This document shows, in pieces, positions 1,667-16,873 of a DNA stretch of 53,486 nucleotides. Below the pieces are notes generated by a model that worked only from the letters and a program-made list of their open reading frames with translations, searched no databases and was not told where the DNA came from. The translations under genes were made by a program, and so were the position numbers. The number at the start of each line of letters is the position of its first letter. Position 1 is the stretch's first letter. The DNA lies in contig CAMVAA010000001.1 in the NCBI GenBank assembly GCA_947165345.1, positions 1 through 53,486 of the forward strand. Direction: 5' to 3'. The stretch comes from an uncultured Bacteroidales bacterium (lineage in GTDB: Bacteria > Bacteroidota > Bacteroidia > Bacteroidales > P3).

Positions 1667-1752
1667 CTCGACGGCAAGAAAATCTTAATTTAGTGCAGAA
1701 TTTTACAATGGACAAATCTATATTTGGTGCAAAATGAGTCATAGAATTATTT
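1667..1752. repeat. 86-bp direct repeat, copy A (left boundary of the AT-rich island)
   Basis: ctcgacggcaagaaaatcttaatttagtgcagaattttacaatggacaaatctatatttggtgcaaaat..atagaattattt aligns with 6287-6372 at an offset of 4620 bp, with about 7 mismatches. It contains TAtaTTTG at 1719-1726. Confidence 0.9.
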
Positions 1753-1768
1753 CATACTTGGTGTAAAA

Positions 1769-1831
1769 GCAGGACCTCCTCAAGGCCGAAGAGGAAGCCG
1801 CCGCCGAGGAAGAGTAACCGCGTGCTCGCGG
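1769..1831 (+). repeat. Third, diverged copy of the gene tail (..KQDLLKAEEEAAAEEE*) plus a short hairpin
   Basis: gcaggacctcctcaaggccgaagaggaagccgccgccgaggaagagtaa, with TAA at 1815-1817. An in-frame stop at 1764 leaves only 16 codons. Hairpin ccgcgtgctcgcgg at 1818-1831. Confidence 0.7.
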
Positions 1832-1872
1832 AGAGCAATAAAGCTACGCAGGCAATATTGTCCGCAAATACA

Positions 1873-1906
1873 AGAGAAGCCTCATCATCGTGGGGCTTCT
1901 CTATTT
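1873..1906 (+). terminator. Putative terminator hairpin
   Basis: agagaagcc (1873-1881) pairs with ggcttctct (1894-1902), followed by atttg. Confidence 0.4.
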
Positions 1907-2009
1907 GTTATACACAATAAACTGGTGCCGTTTTCGTTATAAAAGCGAATACATTTCGTGCAATTCAATGGAAAATTCCAAATGATTAATATGTAGAAAA
2001 ACTGACAAA

Positions 2010-3215
2010 ATGATAGAACTCAAAATCCCTTCAGAGGCAATTGATAGTGTTTTTTCTTCATTTAGTATATATGGGGAGAGACATGAGATACCGATTGAGT
2101 GGTGGCCTAATGGTTTGCAATCTTCCGAGAGGTATTTGGAAACAGACTTTCTAGTTATTAAATCAGTCCATAAAGATGAGGAAATGTTCAAAATAGAGGA
2201 CAAATTAGTGAGGTCTCCTTTTGATGGATATGTTCTCATTGATAATGATAGTTCTTTATACAATTACAATAAAAAAAATACAAGAGTATACACAAAAGAT
2301 GAGGCGGAAAAAATAGTAATAGGCATTGTTTGTGAAAAAATTGAAGAAGCAATAAAGTGTTTGGTAGGTCCAATAGATTGCACTCTTACTGTTGATCCAT
2401 TTACACAAAAACATCAAATCAACGGAACATTTAAAGGGTATTTGTGGAAGTGGTTTAGACATAATTTCCCTACACCAATGTATATGTATGAAGATAGTTT
2501 TATGTGGGTTGAGATAGCTTACGACTTATTTCTGTGTTTTGAATTTAAAGAAGACATGGGAATTATTTCTTTTGATACTGCAGGATATCGGAATAACAAG
2601 CGGCATATTCATAAAGGAGACACCATTTCATTACTATTAAACAACGGGGGGATAATTGACTACACATTGAATAAGAAAGCGCTGGAAAAACACCGGTATT
2701 GCTTTACGTTATACCAAGATGATATTGATGCACTTTTGAACAATCGAATTGTATCATGCCGAATAACATTTGCTGATGAGGAAAGACCGCCTTTGGATTT
2801 GGATTTTGAGAACACTGTTATGGGCGATTATGCACATGATGCTATTCGCTATTATTTGCAAACATATCTTGACGAAGTACACAGGCTTGTCCCATCCTAT
2901 AAATTTCCTGTGCGTAAAGTCAAAAGAACACGCACTGAGTTTGGATTTAACGGGTGTTATGTGTACCTAATGCAAGACACCACCAATGGATATTATAAGA
3001 TAGGCATTTCGAACACACCAGAATACAGGGAAAAGACATTGCAAAGTGAGAAACCCACAATTGAATTGTTAGCTTCAACGAAATATCCCACCCGTAAAAT
3101 AGCTGAAGCAATAGAATCTGCTTTGCACACTGCCTATAGTCAACAACGTCTCCGTGGAGAATGGTTCAAGTTGGATGATGTAGATGTTGCTGCAATAATT
3201 GAGACATTGAAATAA
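2010..3215 (+). CDS. Protein with an unknown ~310-aa N-terminal region and a C-terminal T5orf172/MUG113 (GIY-YIG-like) domain
   Basis: 401-aa ORF in the AT-rich island. The last ~87 aa (nt 2952-3212), GCYVYLMQDTTNGYYKIGISNTPEYREKTL...AIESALHTAY..LRGEWFKL, follow the T5orf172 pattern (G.vY.l...g..KIG.t....R...l....E..lH......gEWF) as I remember it. Confidence 0.7.
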   Translation: MIELKIPSEAIDSVFSSFSIYGERHEIPIEWWPNGLQSSERYLETDFLVIKSVHKDEEMFKIEDKLVRSPFDGYVLIDNDSSLYNYNKKNTRVYTKDEAEKIVIGIVCEKIEEAIKCLVGPIDCTLTVDPFTQKHQINGTFKGYLWKWFRHNFPTPMYMYEDSFMWVEIAYDLFLCFEFKEDMGIISFDTAGYRNNKRHIHKGDTISLLLNNGGIIDYTLNKKALEKHRYCFTLYQDDIDALLNNRIVSCRITFADEERPPLDLDFENTVMGDYAHDAIRYYLQTYLDEVHRLVPSYKFPVRKVKRTRTEFGFNGCYVYLMQDTTNGYYKIGISNTPEYREKTLQSEKPTIELLASTKYPTRKIAEAIESALHTAYSQQRLRGEWFKLDDVDVAAIIETLK

Positions 3216-3229
3216 ATATTGTACTATAC

Positions 3230-4549
3230 ATGAAAAAGTTTACATTGTTTTTCTCTTGGCAATCTGATGATAATGAAACCAAGAAGATAATAACAAATGC
3301 AATACAAAAGGCTGTACATAATATCAAGATTTATCATCGGTATTCCATTAATGTAGAAGAATCAACCAGCAACATTTCGGGCTCTCCACAGATTGTTGAA
3401 ACCATTCTTGACAAGATTGATTCATGTGATATATTTCTTGCAGATGTCACACCGGTATGTTCTTATCAAAAACCATTCGGGAATGGCTTATCAACTATAA
3501 AACAAGTGCCAAATCCAAACGTATTAATGGAACTGGGCTATGCCATGAGCGCAGTTGGGATGCATTATACTATTTGTGTTGCCCATCAAGGGAAATGGAA
3601 TTCCAACGACCTTCCTTTTGATATAAATCATAATAGAATATATCAGTTTACATCATCAAATTGTGATTTATCGGACAGAATTATTGAGGTAATAAAATAC
3701 ATTGAGAAGCATGGGAAACACAGACACAAGGCGACCCTGTATTTGATACATAGATACAACTTACTTTGGGGGAAGATAAAAGATAAGTTCTCAAAAAGTA
3801 ACAAAACTCCTAATGAATATGCCTTTGCAGACCCCATTATCTATTTCAACGAACGCATGGGTAAAGCATTTCATGGAAAGAGAGGTCTTGTTACATATAC
3901 CAAAGCAAGAGATATACGGCGATGTCTCGATAACTTATTCTCTTCTCCTTTAAAATTAAAAAAAATAGAAAGTGAGTATGGAAGTTCTTTTTCAATATTA
4001 TGGTGGTACCGAGGCTCTCTCTCTTCTAATATCGAAAAATATAGACATCTTGGAGGACGGCACTTCCTTATTCAAACCATGGAACTGAACATACGGAAAA
4101 TAGTTGCTTATGTAGACCCTTCTGGTAGATATTATGGACAATATATATATGTGGAGACATACCCTGATAATCCGACAGGTCTTTATCCTTCCCATACTAA
4201 GAGTCACATTGAAGAATGGAGAAAAGAGCATGGTTACTATTCAGAAGAATATGGTGTATTTAGGATACTACATCTATTTTGGAAGAAGGTAACGAGCAAC
4301 GAATATGATGATGGACATACAAGATTTCTAGGGAAATTAATTTCTCCGGCACGTAAAGACCAAGAATTACGCGAACGCTTCCTTACTCCATTTAATTTTA
4401 TTATCACATCACCACATTCATCAATAAACTGTCGTCAGTTTGCAGAGTCAGATGATTACTTTAACAGCCTTCTCAAAACGGAAATGACGATTGAACAGTT
4501 TAATGACTATCTAAAAAGCTTCCCCAAACCAGAGGATAGATATTTCTGA
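3230..4549 (+). CDS. Protein with an N-terminal TIR-like / nucleoside 2-deoxyribosyltransferase-like domain and an unknown ~290-aa C-terminal region
   Basis: 439-aa ORF starting 14 nt after the previous stop. The first ~140 aa show strand FTLFFSWQSD, strand+Asp CDIFLADVT, then NPNVLMELGYA (Glu101, nt 3530-3532) and LPFDI. This is the Rossmann-like TIR/NDT motif layout. The rest has no motif I recognise. Confidence 0.6.
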   Translation: MKKFTLFFSWQSDDNETKKIITNAIQKAVHNIKIYHRYSINVEESTSNISGSPQIVETILDKIDSCDIFLADVTPVCSYQKPFGNGLSTIKQVPNPNVLMELGYAMSAVGMHYTICVAHQGKWNSNDLPFDINHNRIYQFTSSNCDLSDRIIEVIKYIEKHGKHRHKATLYLIHRYNLLWGKIKDKFSKSNKTPNEYAFADPIIYFNERMGKAFHGKRGLVTYTKARDIRRCLDNLFSSPLKLKKIESEYGSSFSILWWYRGSLSSNIEKYRHLGGRHFLIQTMELNIRKIVAYVDPSGRYYGQYIYVETYPDNPTGLYPSHTKSHIEEWRKEHGYYSEEYGVFRILHLFWKKVTSNEYDDGHTRFLGKLISPARKDQELRERFLTPFNFIITSPHSSINCRQFAESDDYFNSLLKTEMTIEQFNDYLKSFPKPEDRYF

Positions 4550-4604
4550 CATTTTTATCGCAAACATACATACAAGATTGGAATAATAGAGTAACCTAAA
4601 AACC

Positions 4605-5648
4605 ATGTTAATAGAAATCTCACATATCAACGAGTCCGAGTATAACGAAATTCTGCAACAGGCTGTTGCAGTTTTTGACAGCGCACGTGTAACAGCGGCC
4701 AAAAGTTTTAGTACAATATCAAATATGGCATACTGGAGCATGGGGAAACTGCTTAACGAGCGGAAACTGGAAGGTAAATACGGTGACGGTGTGGTAAATA
4801 GGCTTTCCGTCGACCTTAAACAGCACTTCCCCAATATGGGTACATCGCCTCGTAACCTATGGGACATGAAACGTTTCTATGAACGTTTTTGCCGCAGTAA
4901 CGAAAAACTGCGACAGGCTGTCGCAGTTTTGCCTTGGGGACACATACTCAGGCTGATGAGTAAGTTTGACAAGGACGATGATGCAATTCTATACTATGCC
5001 ACCGAGACCGTAGCCAAAGGATGGAACCGCGACCTTCTATTGAACGCCATAAAGATGCAAATGCACCTGACCCATCAGACGACAGCCATTAGCAACAACT
5101 TCGCCACTGCCTTGCCCGCTTCTCAAGCGATGTATGCCAATGAAGTGTTCCGCAGCGGATATAATCTCGGCTTTCTTGGAGTCACAGAGCCTGTTGCCGA
5201 ATTGGAATTGGAGCGTCGCTTGGTGGAGAAAGTAAAACTGTTTCTACTCGAATTGGGAAAAGGGTTTACATTCATTGGCGACCAGTATATCATCGAGTAC
5301 AACGGCAAGGAAAGTCGCATAGACATGCTTTTCTACCATCGTGGGCTGCGCTGCCTGGTTGCCTTTGAACTGAAGATTGGCAAGTTTATGCCGGAATATG
5401 CAGGCAAGATGAATTACTACCTGTCTGTTCTCGACCGAACGGAACGTCAAGAAGGAGAGAACCCGTCCATCGGCATTATCCTATGTGCCGAAAAAGACAA
5501 CGTGGATGTAGAACTTGCTCTCGAAGGTGTGACAAAACCCATCGGGGTTGCCGACTATCACCTTTTAATTCCAAAAGCAGAACTGCAAAAGGTAGTAACA
5601 GACGAAATTGCCTTGTACGAGAAAGAACGTATAACAGAAGGAGATTGA
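4605..5648 (+). CDS. DUF1016 (YhcG-family) PD-(D/E)xK nuclease domain protein
   Basis: The N-terminus ..AVAVFDSARVTAAKSFSTISNMAYWSMGKLLNE..YGDGVVNRLSVDLKQHFPNMGTSPRNLWDMKRFYERF is typical of YhcG/DUF1016. The C-terminal core is IDMLFYH..LRCLVAFELKIGKF (D..ExK). Confidence 0.8.
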   Translation: MLIEISHINESEYNEILQQAVAVFDSARVTAAKSFSTISNMAYWSMGKLLNERKLEGKYGDGVVNRLSVDLKQHFPNMGTSPRNLWDMKRFYERFCRSNEKLRQAVAVLPWGHILRLMSKFDKDDDAILYYATETVAKGWNRDLLLNAIKMQMHLTHQTTAISNNFATALPASQAMYANEVFRSGYNLGFLGVTEPVAELELERRLVEKVKLFLLELGKGFTFIGDQYIIEYNGKESRIDMLFYHRGLRCLVAFELKIGKFMPEYAGKMNYYLSVLDRTERQEGENPSIGIILCAEKDNVDVELALEGVTKPIGVADYHLLIPKAELQKVVTDEIALYEKERITEGD

Positions 5649-5887
5649 CAAGCCGACATCGTCGGCGGACCGCCGAAGGATCACCGAAGGGTCATGAGAC
5701 TAAGGGTTGAGAATGAACGTCTTGCATTGCGCAAGAGTATAATTCCGCTTTTTGTTGGTTATCAATAGATTGCAGCCGTTTCAAAGAAGGCGCAAAGAAC
5801 CCACATAGAGGGCACAAAGAATCCTTGTATGGTTATGCAATAAACTGGAGGATTATACCGTTGTGGTAACCGACTAAATAAGCAACT

Positions 5888-6019
5888 ATGAAATTCTTGA
5901 AATGGCTGGGGTTTGACCCCGAAAAGCATAGCGTCAGGACGGAGATTCTCGCCGGGCTGCTCTTGTCGTCCTCTGTCAGACATATTTGTCACCCACAGAC
6001 TCAAGTCTGGAGTCCGTGA
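5888..6019 (+). pseudogene. Possible 5' fragment of an NCS2/AzgA-type purine permease gene
   Basis: MKFLKWLGFDPEKHSVRTEILAGL resembles the conserved N-terminus (..T.VRTEi.AGlTTF..) of AzgA-family permeases. Similarity is then lost and a stop follows after 43 codons. Confidence 0.25.
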
Positions 6020-6286
6020 GATAATTGAAATGCCAAATACAGATAGAAGAATGCCTCGGGATTGGACTTCTTTAATTTGTTGAGTTTTGTGTACTCATAG
6101 TCGGTAAATAGCCAATCTGTCATCCTCTCCCAATGCCGAATGTGTGCATTTTGCTTTATTTGACAGTGCAAAGATACACATATTTTGGGGAACAACAATA
6201 AGTTCATTCTCAAAATAAAAAATGGACGTAGGCATGATTTAAGAATAAATGCGAATAGCTATTAAAAAAAGTTTGTTTTCTTACGA

Positions 6287-6372
6287 CTCGACAGCAAGAA
6301 AATCTTAATTTAGTGCAGAATTTCACAATGGACAAATCTATATTTGGTGCAAAATATATTATAGAATTATTT
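6287..6372. repeat. 86-bp direct repeat, copy B (right boundary of the AT-rich island)
   Basis: Aligns with 1667-1752. It contains TAtaTTTG at 6339-6346. Confidence 0.9.
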
Positions 6373-9228: not shown

Positions 9229-10752
9229 CTATTTCACCAAGGCCCTGTGCAGGACCATGCCCGACACCGTGGTTGTCCGCACGGTATACACCCCGTTGCC
9301 GAGGTGGCTGATGTCGAGCGTTGCCGTGTGGGACTCTCCTTCCACAGCCACATTGCACACCTCGCGGCCGCCCGCGTCGAGGATGGTGACCTTAGACAGA
9401 ATCTCGCCGCAGGAGACCGTAAGCACGTCGGTCGCAGGGTTGGGATACAGCGCCACCGCCGCCGGCGAGGCCGTCTCGATGCCGTCGTGGCCAGGACCAG
9501 GCCCAGGGGTGCCCTCGGCCAGCGAGAAGCGCATGGTGTCGTGGGTCAGCAGCTGGGGATAGTCGGTGCAGAAGGCCATATCGAACAGTATATCCAACGA
9601 CTTGGGGGTGGTGAGGTCTGACTCGAGGGCCATGACGGTGATGGTGTGGGTGCTTTGGTCGAGGGTGATGCGGTCGCCGTTGTTGAGGGGCGTGCCGTCG
9701 TCGTAGAGGCAGAGGAAGTCGATGCCGTTGACGGCCTGGCCGCCGAAACGGAGCGTGGCCTCGGCAGTGGCGTAGTCGGTACCGCTGAGCGAGATGGGTA
9801 TCACCTTGGGCTGGTTTTTGGTCACCGTCTCAGTGCCGCCCTGCACGATACCAATGTCCGAGACAGGCGTGCCAAAGCTGTGCCCTTCGAGGAAAACACC
9901 GCTGTCGTAGCTCTCGTCGCCGACATTGCAGACGGAGATGTGCATGTGGTACGACTCGCAGGGCACCACCGCCGCCGAAGCGGACATCTTCTTGGTGTAT
10001 CCGTCGTACTGCACACCCGGGATGGGGGTGCCGGTGTAGTCGTTGTCGTAGAAATACTGGCTGTACGTCAGGTAGCAGCCCTCCGGAATCTCGCCGGTGA
10101 TGTTTTCCGACCCGAGGCTGCCGTTGTTGACAGTGTTGATGGCCACGGGGATGCCATTGGGGTGCTCGTCGCTTTCCGTGCCGGGTATCATGGCTATGTT
10201 GCGGGTGACGACCTCGCCGGTGACAGGGTCCGGACCCGTCAGGAAAAAGACAAAGACATCATTGAATTGCGTGCCCACATATTCGTTGTACTCCTCGCTG
10301 CCGAAACAGTAGGTGAACGAAATGCTCGACGAGAGGCACACGAAGTCGAAGTCGAGGGTGGCGCACCCGTTGGCGTTGCTCGATATACCCTGCGAACTCA
10401 TCTCGGGGTCTACGTATCTGTCCTGCTCCATTATGGGCAGGCTTTTGCCAAAGCCGTTGTTGGGACCGGCAGCGACAGTGACGGCACCGGTGGTGAGCAC
10501 GAGACCCGTGGTCATGTCGAGACCCATGTATCCGTTGGACTGGAAAACGCCAATCTGGGGATGGCGGCTGTCCACACTGCCCGAATTGCCGTTGAAGCGC
10601 GCATTGTAGACATACACGCCGTCACCAAGCAGGTTGGTGGCAATCAGGTTGCCGATGTTCTGCCCAACGGCAGAGCTGACGTTGATATTCTGAGCCTCCA
10701 CGGCGGCGACCGTCGACAGAACGGTCAGAAAGAGTATAGTTTTTTTCAACAT
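9229..10752 (-). CDS. Choice-of-anchor-L domain protein with a T9SS sorting domain (tandem paralog)
   Basis: 507 aa, collinear with 7677-9194 (FTYCFGSEEYNEYVGTQFNDVFVFFLTG..). C-terminus LYPNPATDVLTVSC..GVYTVRTTTVSGMVLHRALVK. Confidence 0.75.
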   Translation of the reverse strand: MLKKTILFLTVLSTVAAVEAQNINVSSAVGQNIGNLIATNLLGDGVYVYNARFNGNSGSVDSRHPQIGVFQSNGYMGLDMTTGLVLTTGAVTVAAGPNNGFGKSLPIMEQDRYVDPEMSSQGISSNANGCATLDFDFVCLSSSISFTYCFGSEEYNEYVGTQFNDVFVFFLTGPDPVTGEVVTRNIAMIPGTESDEHPNGIPVAINTVNNGSLGSENITGEIPEGCYLTYSQYFYDNDYTGTPIPGVQYDGYTKKMSASAAVVPCESYHMHISVCNVGDESYDSGVFLEGHSFGTPVSDIGIVQGGTETVTKNQPKVIPISLSGTDYATAEATLRFGGQAVNGIDFLCLYDDGTPLNNGDRITLDQSTHTITVMALESDLTTPKSLDILFDMAFCTDYPQLLTHDTMRFSLAEGTPGPGPGHDGIETASPAAVALYPNPATDVLTVSCGEILSKVTILDAGGREVCNVAVEGESHTATLDISHLGNGVYTVRTTTVSGMVLHRALVK

Positions 10753-10844
10753 AGCGGTACTGTTATTTCAGACTGCAAATATACAACTATTTTTGAATAC
10801 GACGGCTTTTTTTTACCCGCCCGGCACAAGCGCACGCTCCCAAG

Positions 10845-11507
10845 TCAGTCGGTGAAGGCGTAGCGGACTATGTTGGAGCCCATACGCAGCGCCTTCTGGC
10901 GCGTGGCCTGGCTATCGCGGTGCACGTCGGGGTCTTCCCAGCCGTCGCCGAGGTCGCACTCCCAGGTGAAGAAGCACACGAGGCGCCCCTCATAGATGAG
11001 GCCGAAGCCCTTGGGCGGCAGGTTGTCGTGCTCGTGGATCTTGGGCAGACCGTTGGGAAAGTCGTATTTCTGGTGGTAGATGGGGTGCGAGAAGGGCAGC
11101 TCGACGAAGTCCAGCTCGGGGAAGACCTTCTTCATCTGCGGCTCTATGAACTCGCGCAGTCCATAGTTGTCGTCAATATGCAGGAATCCGCCGCCTATAA
11201 GATACTTGCGAAGGTTCTGCGCCTCGCGGTCGCTGAAGACCACGTTGCCGTGACCGGTCATGTGGACGAAGGGGTAGTTGAAGAGCTCGCTGCTGCCCAC
11301 GTCGACGGTTGCAGGGCTGCCGAGCCCCATCTGCTGGTCTTCGTTGCAGAAGGCGGTGAGGTTGGTGAGCGACGTGGGGTTGGCGTACCAGTCGCCACCG
11401 CCGCCATAGCGCAACAAGGCCAACCTCGGCTGGGCCGCCAAGGGGTGGAAGCTGAAGGCTGAAAGCTGAAAGCCGAAAGCCAAAAGTATGAACAGTATCT
11501 TTTTCAT
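10845..11507 (-). CDS. DUF4159 domain protein (secreted)
   Basis: Signal peptide, then ..LLRYGGGGDWYANPTSL.NL..F......PFVHMTGHGNVVFSD.EA.NLRKYL..GGFLHIDDNYG, typical of DUF4159. The start overlaps the rsmE stop by 4 nt. Confidence 0.7.
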   Translation of the reverse strand: MKKILFILLAFGFQLSAFSFHPLAAQPRLALLRYGGGGDWYANPTSLTNLTAFCNEDQQMGLGSPATVDVGSSELFNYPFVHMTGHGNVVFSDREAQNLRKYLIGGGFLHIDDNYGLREFIEPQMKKVFPELDFVELPFSHPIYHQKYDFPNGLPKIHEHDNLPPKGFGLIYEGRLVCFFTWECDLGDGWEDPDVHRDSQATRQKALRMGSNIVRYAFTD

Positions 11508-12229
11508 CTGTCGTTGATTAGGTTGAATGCCGCAGTGGCGTAGAGGGCCGCCGTCTCGGTGCGCAGACGGCTGTGGCCGAGGCTGACGGGCTGGAAGCCG
11601 CAGTCGAGGGCAAGCGCTATCTCCTCGGCCGAGAAGTCACCCTCGGGTCCTATGAGCACAACGGCGTCGCGCCCGGCCACCATGGCGGACGCCAAGGGTG
11701 TGCGGGGCTGGTCGGCCTCACAGTGGGCTATGAACTTCTGCGTGTCCGGCGCGAACAGCTTTGCGCTCTGCCGAAGCCACTCTTTCAGCTCGACCGGAGG
11801 GTTCACGACCGGCAACACCGTGTGCAGACTCTGTTTCATGGCGCTGACGGCCAGCCGCTCCAGCCGGTCGGTCTTGAGGAAGGTGCGCTCCGAGTGGTCG
11901 CAGTTTAGCAGCGTTATCTCTCCCACCCCTATCTCCACGGCCTTCTCCACGAGCCACTCCATACGGGCCGGGTTCTTGGTGGGAGCCACGGACAGGTGGA
12001 GCGCGGCCCGTGGCGCGGGGCTCGTGCTATGGGCTTCCGTGGGCTCCACGACACAGGCTTTGGGGTCGGCGACGACTATACGGCAGAGGTACATGTTGCC
12101 CCGTCCGTCCGTAACGTTGATATCGTCACCCTCCCGCAGCCTCATCACGCGCACCGCATGGCGGCTCTCCTCCTCGTCGAGGGTACACAGGCCGTTTGGC
12201 GTTATATCCAGGCTATAAAACAGTTGCAT
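11504..12229 (-). CDS. rsmE: 16S rRNA (uracil1498-N3)-methyltransferase
   Basis: MQLFY...EESRHAVRVMRLREGD.I.VTDGRG....C.I......, and C-terminal ..VLIGPEGDFS.EE...A...GF.PVSLG..RLRTETAA. This is the RsmE pattern. Confidence 0.85.
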   Translation of the reverse strand: MQLFYSLDITPNGLCTLDEEESRHAVRVMRLREGDDINVTDGRGNMYLCRIVVADPKACVVEPTEAHSTSPAPRAALHLSVAPTKNPARMEWLVEKAVEIGVGEITLLNCDHSERTFLKTDRLERLAVSAMKQSLHTVLPVVNPPVELKEWLRQSAKLFAPDTQKFIAHCEADQPRTPLASAMVAGRDAVVLIGPEGDFSAEEIALALDCGFQPVSLGHSRLRTETAALYATAAFNLINDR

Positions 12230-15033: not shown

Positions 15034-15054
15034 ATCTTATCTCTTATAACTTAA

Positions 15055-15433
15055 CACTTCTCTCATATCACTCCCCACTTAACACTTACCACTTCTCACT
15101 TAACACTCATAACTAACGCACCCCCACCCCCATTTATTGTGCCCCCCAGCCAAACACATTAACACCCCTACCACCAACATAACACTTACCACTTACCCCC
15201 CCCAACTCTTAACTCTTAACTCATAACTCTTAACTCATAACTCTTAACTCATAACTCTTAACTCCCTCCTCCCCCCGTACATTTGGCTTAACTACTTAAC
15301 TACTGCCTACTGTCTCCCCCCCCAACTCTTAACTCTTAACTCCCCCTCCCCCGTACATTTGGCTTAACTACTTAACTACTGCCTACTGTCTCCCCCCAAC
15401 TCTTAACTCTTAACTCATAACTCTTAACTCCCC
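15055..15433. repeat. G-depleted repeat tract: 14-bp ctcttaactcataa tandem units plus two ~76-bp R2 units
   Basis: R2 units lie at 15264-15341 and 15342-15430 (..cccgtacatttggcttaactacttaactactgcctactgtctcccccc..aactcttaactcttaactc). They are related to three units at 40369-40585. Very few G residues on the + strand. Confidence 0.85.
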
Positions 15434-16873
15434 TACGCCACCGGCTACGGCATCAGCGTCGACGACCTCGTGCTCAACGCGGCGCCCGTCTGCCCGCGCC
15501 CACTGGCCCTCTCCCTCTCCGACGCCACCGAGTCCAGCCTCTCCCTCTCCATCGACGACACAGCCTTCGTCGGCCACTACCGCCTGTGGGTCTACGCGGC
15601 CGACACCCTGGTCGACAGTCTCGACATCAACTCCGCCACCTACACTCTCTACGACCTCGCTCCCGGCACCCTCTACACCGTGAGCGCCGCCTCCCTCTGC
15701 TACGGCAACCCCACCGAGCGCGTCAGCGCCTCCGCCGCCACCCTCTGCGCCGTCATCGCCGAAGCGGAGCTCCCCTGGAGCGAAGACTTCGAGGGCTGGC
15801 CCGTCGGCATCCACGCTCCTCTCAATCCCTGCTGGCAAGCCTTCTACTCCACCTCCGACACTATCCTCTCCACTTACGCCAAGGTCTACGCCGCCACCGA
15901 CCTCGACGCCGGACACACGGCCGTAAAGATGCTGGCACAGCACAGCTACTCCACCGGCGAGCAGTACTCCACCCTCGTCCTGCCCCTCGTCGACGTCAAC
16001 CCGCGCCGTCTCCAGCTCGACCTGCGGATGCGCTTCGCCTACCAGCAGACCGACCCCGGCGAGTACGTGGAAGTCGGCGTCCTCTCCGACCCCGACGACC
16101 CGCACAGCTTCGTCCCCTGCTCCCTCATCGAAAACCCCGGCAACTATCTCTACCACGACTACTCCGTCCGCTTCGGACGCCACCCCCACCCCACCTCCGG
16201 CGCCCTCGCCATCCGCTACCACTACAACGTGCCCAACGACAATTCTCACATCTTTGTCGACAGCGTCGCACTCTCCCTCCTGGACGAGGAGGACGTGGCC
16301 TGTGAAATCAGCGCCCTGCACGTCTCCGACATCACAGACAGCAGCGCCGTCGTGGCCTGGAACTACAACTGCGAGGCCTCGGGCTTCGAGGTCGAGCTGC
16401 GCGGCGGCGACGAGGACCGCAACCTCCTCACCTCCGACACCTCCGTCGCCCTCACCGCCCTCCAGCCCGCCACGGCCTACTCCGTCCGCGTGCGCGTGGC
16501 CGGCGACTTCTGGAGCCAGCCCGTCTACTTCTACACCACCGTCCCTCCCACGCCGTCCGACACCTCGGCCTCCGACACCACCCATGTCGACACCGTCGAC
16601 CCCGTGAATCCCTCCGACTCCTCCGACCACTCGGCCGTTAGCGTCGTCGCTCTTCAGTCCGTCGCTCTCTGCCCCAACCCCGTGGCCTCGGGCTACACGG
16701 TGACGCTGCGCGGAGTCCCCGCCGCCGCCTCGGTGTCCGTGTGCGTCGCCACAGGCCGCCCCGTCCTCTCCGACCTTCGCGGCGACTCCTTCGCCATCAA
16801 GCAGCCGGGCGTCTACTTCGTGGTGGTCTCCTCCGGCTCCTCGCGCACCGTCCGCAAGCTGGTGGTGCTGTAA
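15428..16873 (+). pseudogene. 5'-truncated T9SS cargo gene (FN3-like domains plus CTD), with no signal peptide
   Basis: The frame opens straight out of the repeat tract after TAA at 15425-15427 (LPYATGYGISVDDLVLNAAPVCPRPLALS..). The first possible start is GTG at 15470. There is no N-terminal signal peptide. C-terminus ALCPNPVASGYTVTL....GVYFVVVSSGSSRTVRKLVVL is a T9SS CTD. Confidence 0.55.

Follow-up and report, generated by a model that had tools for sequence, protein, structure and literature searches.

Near the left end of a 53,486-nucleotide (nt) stretch of DNA from an uncultured Bacteroidales bacterium (contig CAMVAA010000001.1; hereafter the window), three co-directional genes, which we call A, B and C, lie in an AT-rich segment bracketed by direct repeats. 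Our analysis makes it likely that this segment (1753-6286) is a small defence island of horizontal origin, composed of three independently evolving single-gene modules and seated in a recombination hotspot where an EF-G-like gene has its 3′ end. Sequence matches support that all three predicted proteins carry domains typical of immune systems: a T5orf172 nuclease domain of the GIY-YIG type in A, a TIR-like domain in B and the two domains of a DUF1016/YhcG nuclease in C. The three genes are packed head to tail and are probably co-transcribed. An initial annotation, made from the sequence alone, had put forward A and B, with or without C, as a new two- or three-gene defence system. A dedicated multi-gene system of A and B, or of A, B and C, is not supported by the neighbourhoods in which relatives of these genes are found.

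Neighbourhoods of A and B in other genomes

Gene neighbourhoods were sampled at the 80 metagenome loci closest to the window, found through their A homologs, and at 32 loci of the Genome Taxonomy Database (GTDB), which lie on contigs from one genome per species and were found with an alignment of B homologs, the B sequence alone having found no loci. A full-length B is present in nine of the 32 GTDB loci, seven of which (L003-L007, L009 and L010) include at least 2.8 kb of upstream sequence; in all seven, an A homolog is absent from this sequence, both by tblastn and by the family hidden Markov model (HMM). The gene that does precede B overlaps it or lies within 6 nt of it, and varies between genomes: an AlbA_2-HATPase_c_4-HTH protein in L004 and L010 (with Cas9 nearby in L004), a ThsB-like TIR protein and a caspase in L003, a PDC-S27 ATPase in L007, and a PLD nuclease with a TIR_2 protein in L009, where an HNH gene lies downstream of B. 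Likewise, a clade named P0126, whose B is 70% identical to that of the window, carries B without A between the genes for PFOR and SecG, at the very locus where a second clade, P0132, is found. As an observation apart, within positions 5285-11194 of L003 the B homolog stands between two DUF1016/YhcG genes, right after the pair of TIR protein and caspase; the order and orientation of this recurrence of DUF1016 near B, in an unrelated genome, differ from those in the window.

The same picture emerges from the side of A. Downstream sequence of at least 700 nt is available for 62 distinct A genes; 44 of them precede a same-strand open reading frame (ORF) of at least 150 amino acids within 400 nt, and 30 of these 44 lie no more than 60 nt from it, a distance that is often 7-38 nt. 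Since tight spacing is thus the norm in these islands, the 14 nt that separate A from B in the window are uninformative on partnership. Only three of the 43 distinct proteins encoded directly downstream of A homologs are B. Another 17 are AAA_15/AAA_21 ABC-type ATPases resembling AriA, AbiLi, HEC-02A or PDC-M29A, and the remaining cargo includes SIR2 (PDC-S25, E-value 2e-146), GmrSD (HEC-06, E 3e-190), AbiJ-like and DUF2971 (PDC-S31) proteins, as well as small membrane proteins. With B lacking A in seven of seven genomes and following it in three of 43 cases, homologs of the two genes are not co-localised elsewhere, an outcome that the initial annotation had itself named as refuting its proposal of a new two- or three-gene system.

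Each ATPase cargo gene has an overlapping downstream partner of its own, of which PADLOC knows a single one, AbiLii. The idea that ATPase and partner always form known complete systems was therefore rejected. Since the small partners lack a PADLOC match, some of these trios of A, ATPase and small gene may be uncatalogued ATPase-based systems. Such trios, in which an A-type T5orf172 gene is followed by an AAA_15/21 ATPase gene and an overlapping gene for 160-278 amino acids, are seen in L046-L048, L051, L056, L059, L063, L064, L067, L072-L074 and L078-L083.

Around the relatives of A and B we found pairs of ThsB-like TIR and caspase genes, PDC-S27, a group of PLD, TIR and HNH genes, as well as Cas9, Kiwa and a PLD-helicase beside an MmeI-type methylase. 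These neighbours are overwhelmingly known defence genes and place the relatives of A and B in defence islands, a point that the initial annotation had proposed to check.

Domain composition of B, A and C

B combines a TIR head with a C-terminal domain that no searched model covers. On its own, B matches the CAP12/Pycsar TIR model (PF10137) weakly over residues 15-119 (E 2e-4, under the Pfam threshold) and the nucleoside deoxyribosyltransferase (NDT) model at E 0.018, while PF10137 is matched by 100 of 101 members of the B family (best E 7e-7). The AF2 model of B, with a predicted local distance difference test (pLDDT) score of 87, finds its best PDB fold matches in the TIR domains of TIR-STING (9lmq and 7un8, E ~1e-4) and of the SPARTA protein TIR-APAZ, and in DNPH1/NDT enzymes. 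The TIR/NDT-like assignment, weak for B alone, is thus borne out by the family and by the predicted fold. Within the motif PNPNVLxELGYA, E101 does not vary in 21 full-length B homologs and is conserved to at least 90% among the 101. The family comprises 157 hits, nearly all from Bacteroidales/Prevotella metagenomes, and B is missing from phage records.

The last ~240 residues of B match no Pfam model (2025 copy) in any of the 101 homologs, nor any model of NCBIfam or PADLOC; a search with the full-length structure model gave no PDB fold match attributable to this domain, and the B family profile gave chance hits only against PDB sequences. A set of 1.84 billion representative proteins, searched with a profile built from residues 196-439, yielded a family of 757 clusters (50% identity) at E≤1e-3, or 423 at E≤1e-30. 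Among the matches listed, the domain sits C-terminally in 150 of 150, preceded by N-terminal regions of ~100-430 residues. The heads recognised on 117 representatives are TIR_2 (19), CAP12-type TIR (9), SEFIR (7), TIR (7), DUF4062 (6), protein kinase (5), GGDEF (3), caspase (3) and EAD11 (3), and more rarely CHAT (2), Cas10 palm (2) and a conflict-system nucleotidyltransferase (1). Source records hold no names for members of this family, and a literature search found no description of the domain. A constant domain placed behind many interchangeable enzymatic heads is typical of sensory or regulatory parts of conflict systems; the domain is a widely reused module, and we regard it as a good candidate infection sensor.

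The nuclease assignment of A rests on residues 317-398, which match MUG113/T5orf172 (Pfam, E 4e-13), as do all 77 A family members compared with Pfam. Three residues of this domain, Y319, R340 and E384, never vary in the family, and a fourth, Y328, is conserved to at least 90%. Their agreement with the GIY-YIG pattern suggests that the four have catalytic roles. The domain is also far better conserved than the rest of the protein, with a median pairwise amino acid identity of 0.70 vs 0.20 for residues 1-300, and a median identity at third codon positions of 0.45 vs 0.34 for the N-terminal part. Because third-position identity in the nuclease domain is only 0.45, its conservation results mainly from purifying selection, to which a few clearly mosaic pairs are added. 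The same figure led us to reject gene conversion as a force that keeps the T5orf172 coding end similar everywhere.

Nothing comparable was found for the first ~310 residues of A, which match no Pfam model in any of the 77 homologs and none in NCBIfam or PADLOC; the initial annotation had likewise recognised no motif in this region or in the C-terminal region of B. The A family profile gave chance hits only against PDB sequences. Foldseek searches with the full-length structure model (pLDDT 86) returned nothing significant from the PDB, the best hit being IalB (E 7e-3, template modelling score 0.23), and from BFVD the T5orf172 domain as sole match, the N-terminal fold being unmatched. A search with residues 1-305 retrieved T5orf172 proteins only, with zero alternative fusions. 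The family counts 1051 hits, nearly all from Bacteroidales/Prevotella metagenomes, and full-length A is missing from 50,697 phage records.

C matches DUF1016_N (E 5e-32) and YhcG_C (E 4e-54), both above the Pfam threshold, so that the domain calls of the initial annotation hold for this protein as they do for A, and the PD-(D/E)xK motif IDMLF...AFELK, read from the translation, is intact. C corresponds end to end (residues 8-336, E 1e-111) to the PADLOC single-gene candidate PDC-S02, with which it shares the model and both Pfam domains, nothing structural being different. C thus has a catalogued counterpart. The pairing of A and B, which the initial annotation could match to no named system, is unnamed in the literature that we searched, in which no named system of T5orf172 and TIR proteins was found.

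Cargo exchange and the EF-G locus

Comparison of closely related A loci shows that the genes downstream of A are exchanged at its stop codon. L056 carries ATPase cargo and L057 carries SIR2; in the N-terminal and middle domains of A the two loci share 96-99% identity, and their DNA is 95% identical over 1431 nt that stop exactly at the stop codon of A. Similarity stops at the same place between L083 and L079 and between L033 and L067, and in the latter pair it resumes past the cargo. Across 1411 pairs of loci with homology spanning the 3′ end of A, the alignment ends within 5 nt of the stop codon in 773 and runs more than 40 nt past it in only 70. This pattern is partly trivial, since a conserved gene stands beside unrelated ones; the recent pairs, which are more than 85% identical, nevertheless show real cargo replacement at the stop codon of A.

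The upstream side of A varies as well. A follows PFOR in nine loci with differing cargo, EF-G in L041-L044 and L136, and, by eye, HisS-like and RsgA-like genes in two other loci. A genes adjacent to PFOR have N-domain identities as low as 14-19%, and, as judged from these alignments, the variable part of A shows no correspondence with the cargo or with the gene upstream. The related cassettes are all AT-rich, with a GC content of 0.34-0.39 in hosts of 0.52-0.60. At the PFOR-SecG locus of L033-L040, we also observed a conserved gene for 209-215 amino acids after B (for example L033 3745-4380), with a faint match to an IS200-like Y1 transposase (E 8e-4).

The closest relatives of the window cassette lie directly after EF-G. 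In L041 and L042, a 1010-bp direct repeat of the 3′ part of EF-G (4405-5414 and 10593-11602, 96% identical) flanks an arrangement A1-A2-B-C with two A paralogs, and more defence genes (Bro-N, PLD-helicase and MmeI-type methylase) follow the cassette. In L136, the displaced EF-G copy has decayed to EFG_IV and EFG_C fragments, which are followed by a Kiwa system. Left of ~2946, the A gene of the window shares 82% identity with the A1 paralog in L041, and the DNA from 2946 to 5824, comprising the rest of A, B and C, is 97% identical to A2-B-C of L041; the window A gene is thus a chimera of A1-like and A2-like parts.

In the window itself, an EF-G-like gene is represented by three copies of its 3′ end (8-75, 1180-1247 and 1769-1836), which the initial annotation had not noticed; the encoded end is QALLKAYEEAANEEE before the stop, and in the third copy EEAAAEEE before the stop. 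Each consists of the last ~50 nt of the gene and downstream sequence, and the copies are 74-93% identical. Homology to L041, in which EF-G ends in QQALLKAYEEAAAEEE before the stop, begins at window position 1768. Since the window holds these three copies in addition to an 86-nt direct repeat (Table 1), insertions beside EF-G have probably happened repeatedly. We note that the copies bound successive inserts, namely an outer membrane protein (OMP) gene, the gene for a 96-amino acid protein and the A-B-C island.

Table 1. Coordinates of the cassette genes, their domains and associated sequence features in the window
Feature	Position (nt)	Strand	Residues or length	Remarks
Direct repeat, left copy	1667-1752	+	86 nt	93% identical to right copy
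Third EF-G-end copy	1769-1836	+		just inside left repeat; left end of DNA shared with L041-L044 cassettes
Terminator-like hairpin	1873-1902	+	13-bp stem	followed by T run; between EF-G-end copy and gene A
Gene A	2010-3215	+	401 amino acids
A N-domain	2010-2489	+	residues 1-160	hypervariable
A middle domain	2502-2909	+	residues 165-300	beta-rich, moderately conserved
Recombination junction within A	2946-2953	+		similarity to L041 paralogs differs left and right
A T5orf172/GIY-YIG nuclease domain	2952-3212	+	residues 315-401	highly conserved
Gene B	3230-4549	+	439 amino acids
B CAP12/Pycsar-type TIR/NDT-like domain	3230-3724	+	residues 1-165	N-terminal
B E101 codon	3530-3532	+	residue 101	candidate catalytic residue
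B C-terminal domain	3815-4546	+	residues 196-439	helical linker between TIR and this domain
Gene C	4605-5648	+	347 amino acids
Non-coding island tail	5649-6286		~640 nt	L041 homology stops at 5824; L133 rejoins at 5821
Direct repeat, right copy	6287-6372	+	86 nt	~180-200 nt upstream of LRR_5 gene (ATG 6549)

The right end of the shared DNA is marked by a further contig, L133, which is 99% identical to the window from 5821 rightwards. Its positions 1-406 hold EF-G-end sequence and a 115-nt internal piece of C (window 4887-5001), joined to window position 5821, and this junction coincides with the end of L041 homology at 5824. L133 is probably a strain variant that lost A, B and most of C. A search for an island-free site with the flanking LRR and 96-amino acid proteins, by exact sequence, found only the same strain or this partial-deletion variant.

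Much of the local description in the initial annotation was accurate. The ORF coordinates, the shared plus strand and the intergenic gaps of 14 nt (A-B) and 55 nt (B-C) are exact. The AT-rich character seen by eye is confirmed, with a GC content of 0.33-0.38 over the region of A and B (2001-4750) against 0.55-0.58 in the left flank, 0.58-0.65 in the right flank and ~0.60 in the remainder of the 53 kb window; unlike A and B, gene C has a GC content of ~0.47-0.49. The bracketing direct repeats are present as well, and the 62-nt core of the repeat occurs exactly twice in the window (0 expected, from 100 shuffles). As had been stated, no integrase is encoded: there is no integrase or recombinase ORF within 1753-6286, and no integrase or transposase among the neighbouring genes, which encode an OMP beta-barrel, the 96-amino acid protein of no recognised family, an LRR_5 protein and a protein with a type IX secretion system tail. 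Nor was a tRNA found in the window as an integration target, and an Rfam scan of the window gave zero RNA gene matches.

Because its right copy lies ~200 nt upstream of the LRR_5 gene, the 86-nt repeat may be a duplicated promoter region, a reading that also draws on a Bacteroidetes -7 type motif: the sequence TATATTTG (1719-1726 and 6339-6346, one per repeat copy) fits TAnnTTTG by eye. A sigma-70 promoter scan returned 16 sites against 12.7 expected and is uninformative for Bacteroidetes. Further along the window, non-coding DNA rich in C and T (15040-15440) contains poly-C runs as well as CTCTTAACT(CATAA) units in tandem, and explains the extreme GC skew of -0.5 in that kilobase; the skew at 40-41 kb is similar.

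Based on these observations, we propose a separate mechanism for each gene. The variable N-terminal part of A would set the target of the nuclease, and its conserved 3′ coding end would be the homology arm by which the cargo behind it is exchanged. B would act as a one-protein sensor-effector, in which the C-terminal domain detects an infection cue and thereby drives oligomerisation of the N-terminal TIR domain, probably as in other TIR effectors; the TIR domain, with E101 as candidate catalytic residue, would then hydrolyse NAD+, and the resulting depletion of NAD+ would abort infection. C would act as a PD-(D/E)xK nuclease that probably cuts nucleic acid.

Alternative readings and comparison with known systems

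Several points weigh against three independent modules. In the P0132 clade, A and B stand together with the same 14-nt gap as in the window, at 66% identity to the window for B and only ~42% for A. The A-B-C trio is intact in at least three backgrounds, namely the window, L041-L044 (with the extra tandem A paralog) and L136/L137; since every other cassette that holds the trio is ~90-99% identical to that of the window and lies directly after an EF-G gene, we attribute its travelling together to recent common descent. A scan of the window found zero terminator-like sites between A, B and C, which may therefore form one transcript, and A and B might be functionally coupled to some degree within the trio and P0132 sub-clade. 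A could also be a true component of some systems of A, ATPase and a third gene, because most of the ATPases have a third, overlapping partner that is absent from PADLOC. Moreover, the loci compared are a sample and not a census, the biochemical activities and defence phenotypes of A, B and C are all predictions from sequence, and, in the one published test, a PDC-S02 representative gave zero protection against T4, T5 and T7 in E. coli B (bioRxiv 10.1101/2024.09.26.614923).

We consider quite improbable a single dedicated system for abortive infection built from A and B, or from all three genes. In it, one protein would sense the phage and another would execute the response, for example in a Thoeris-like manner with a signal passing from the TIR protein B to the nuclease A. 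Such a system would account for the 14-nt gap without a terminator, for the placement of A directly upstream of B in the window, L033-L036, L041-L045, L053 and L136/L137, and for the fact that each of the two proteins joins an effector domain to a region of no recognised family. It is at odds with the occurrence of B without A in the seven GTDB genomes and the P0126 clade, with the small share of B among the genes downstream of A, and with A genes that are 96-99% identical and carry differing cargo, the N-domain of A not tracking that cargo. The fusion partners of the C-terminal domain of B mark it as a self-contained module, B has no PADLOC ThsB match, and no ThsA-type effector lies nearby. 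It is also unlikely, to a lesser degree, that A is a selfish nuclease resembling homing endonucleases, which would cut at or near the 3′ ends of conserved genes (EF-G, PFOR) in island-free genomes, drive recombinational copying of A and its downstream cargo, and so carry B and C as passengers. This would fit the phage T5orf172 proteins, which are GIY-YIG-type homing endonucleases at exchange boundaries (PMC10448857), as well as the position of A right after PFOR or EF-G, the cargo-exchange boundary at its stop codon, the tandem paralogs and chimeric A of the window, and the presence or absence of A at the same locus in different clades. Yet the domain that would recognise the target does not follow it, the N-domains of PFOR-adjacent A genes having identities as low as 14-19%; none of the 77 members has a CapR/DUF723-type or other Pfam DNA-binding domain, the N-terminal fold is unmatched in the PDB and BFVD, and the full-length protein is absent from the phage records. 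Alignments are in any case expected to stop where a conserved gene stops whenever the neighbours differ, and the 1-kb EF-G duplication suggests integration of circular DNA instead.

A very remote alternative is that the cassette is unrelated to defence and is the decaying remnant of a mobile element, its genes either serving the element, for example in replication or exclusion, or being non-functional. The AT-rich composition, the direct repeats without an integrase, the 640-nt non-coding tail, the strain variant deleted for most of the island and the failed phage test of PDC-S02 would all agree with decay, but none of the three ORFs is disrupted, hundreds of homologs retain the catalytic-type residues, the nuclease domain of A is under strong purifying selection, and known defence genes overwhelmingly make up the surroundings of both the A and the B family. 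Taken together, the evidence favours an island of three single-gene modules over each of these alternatives.

Going beyond this island reading, A-type genes would organise immune-gene cassettes in Bacteroidales: placed right behind housekeeping genes such as EF-G and PFOR, they would fix, through their strongly conserved 3′ coding end and maybe aided by their nuclease, the point where entire defence systems (B, ABC-ATPase pairs, SIR2, GmrSD, AbiL or AbiJ-like) change places between strains. Separately, the C-terminal domain of B would be a new and widespread infection-sensing module common to TIR, SEFIR, caspase, kinase and GGDEF proteins. We hold this broader view as speculative and rather doubtful. 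By analogy, A would then be the chromosomal counterpart of phage nuclease genes at genetic-exchange boundaries. Defence systems of gut and rumen Bacteroidales have seldom been tested. Genes A, B and C are better tested one at a time, which saves cloning the wrong unit. The family of the C-terminal domain of B opens a route to the triggers of TIR, caspase and kinase effectors, and the consistent position of A between a core gene and swappable cargo offers a concrete way to test how such bacteria of gut and rumen assemble and exchange their defence islands.

Among known systems, TIR-STING, Cap12 TIR-SAVED and PycTIR resemble B in joining a TIR head to a separate C-terminal domain in one chain, but the C-terminal domain of B matches no STING, SAVED or cNMP-binding Pfam model (0 of 101 homologs). 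A TIR domain of the PF10137 type, as in CBASS and Pycsar, is found in the B family, B alone staying below threshold; no CD-NTase or PycC cyclase lies within 1-9.4 kb, and no Argonaute partner is nearby. Since B has no known sensor domain and neither a cyclase nor an Argonaute partner in its vicinity, it probably senses its trigger directly. With Thoeris, B shares its nature as a TIR protein in a defence island, and B homologs stand beside a ThsB-like TIR in L003 and L009. B matches neither a PADLOC ThsB model (E≤1) nor PF08937, but PF10137 and NDT only, and it has no conserved adjacent signal-binding effector (SLOG, Macro and the like), its neighbours varying by genome and being A and C in the window. 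A 2025 survey of Thoeris explicitly set aside stand-alone TIR proteins (bioRxiv 10.64898/2025.12.03.692087).

The closest counterparts of A are the T5orf172 proteins of ICP1- and T5-like phages, described as GIY-YIG-type homing endonucleases near essential genes that swap domains and lie at exchange boundaries (PMC10448857). A shares with them the nuclease domain, the position, the domain mosaicism and the location at an exchange boundary; it differs in being chromosomal, not found in the phage records, without Zn-finger CapR/DUF723/DUF4397 repeats and followed by defence cargo. As for the locus as a whole, an integrase-borne island would likewise show att-like direct repeats, such as the 86-nt repeat of the window or the 1010-bp EF-G repeat of L041/L042, but here the integrase and the tRNA are absent. 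Our literature searches found no description of slots in Bacteroidales that begin with an A gene and are bounded at its stop codon. The locus shares most with defence hotspots flanked by core genes, in which variable cargo lies between conserved genes (here EF-G, or PFOR and SecG) and differing systems occupy the same slot in related strains; it is set apart from them by the nuclease gene A, which usually comes first in the slot and has the exchange boundary at its stop codon.

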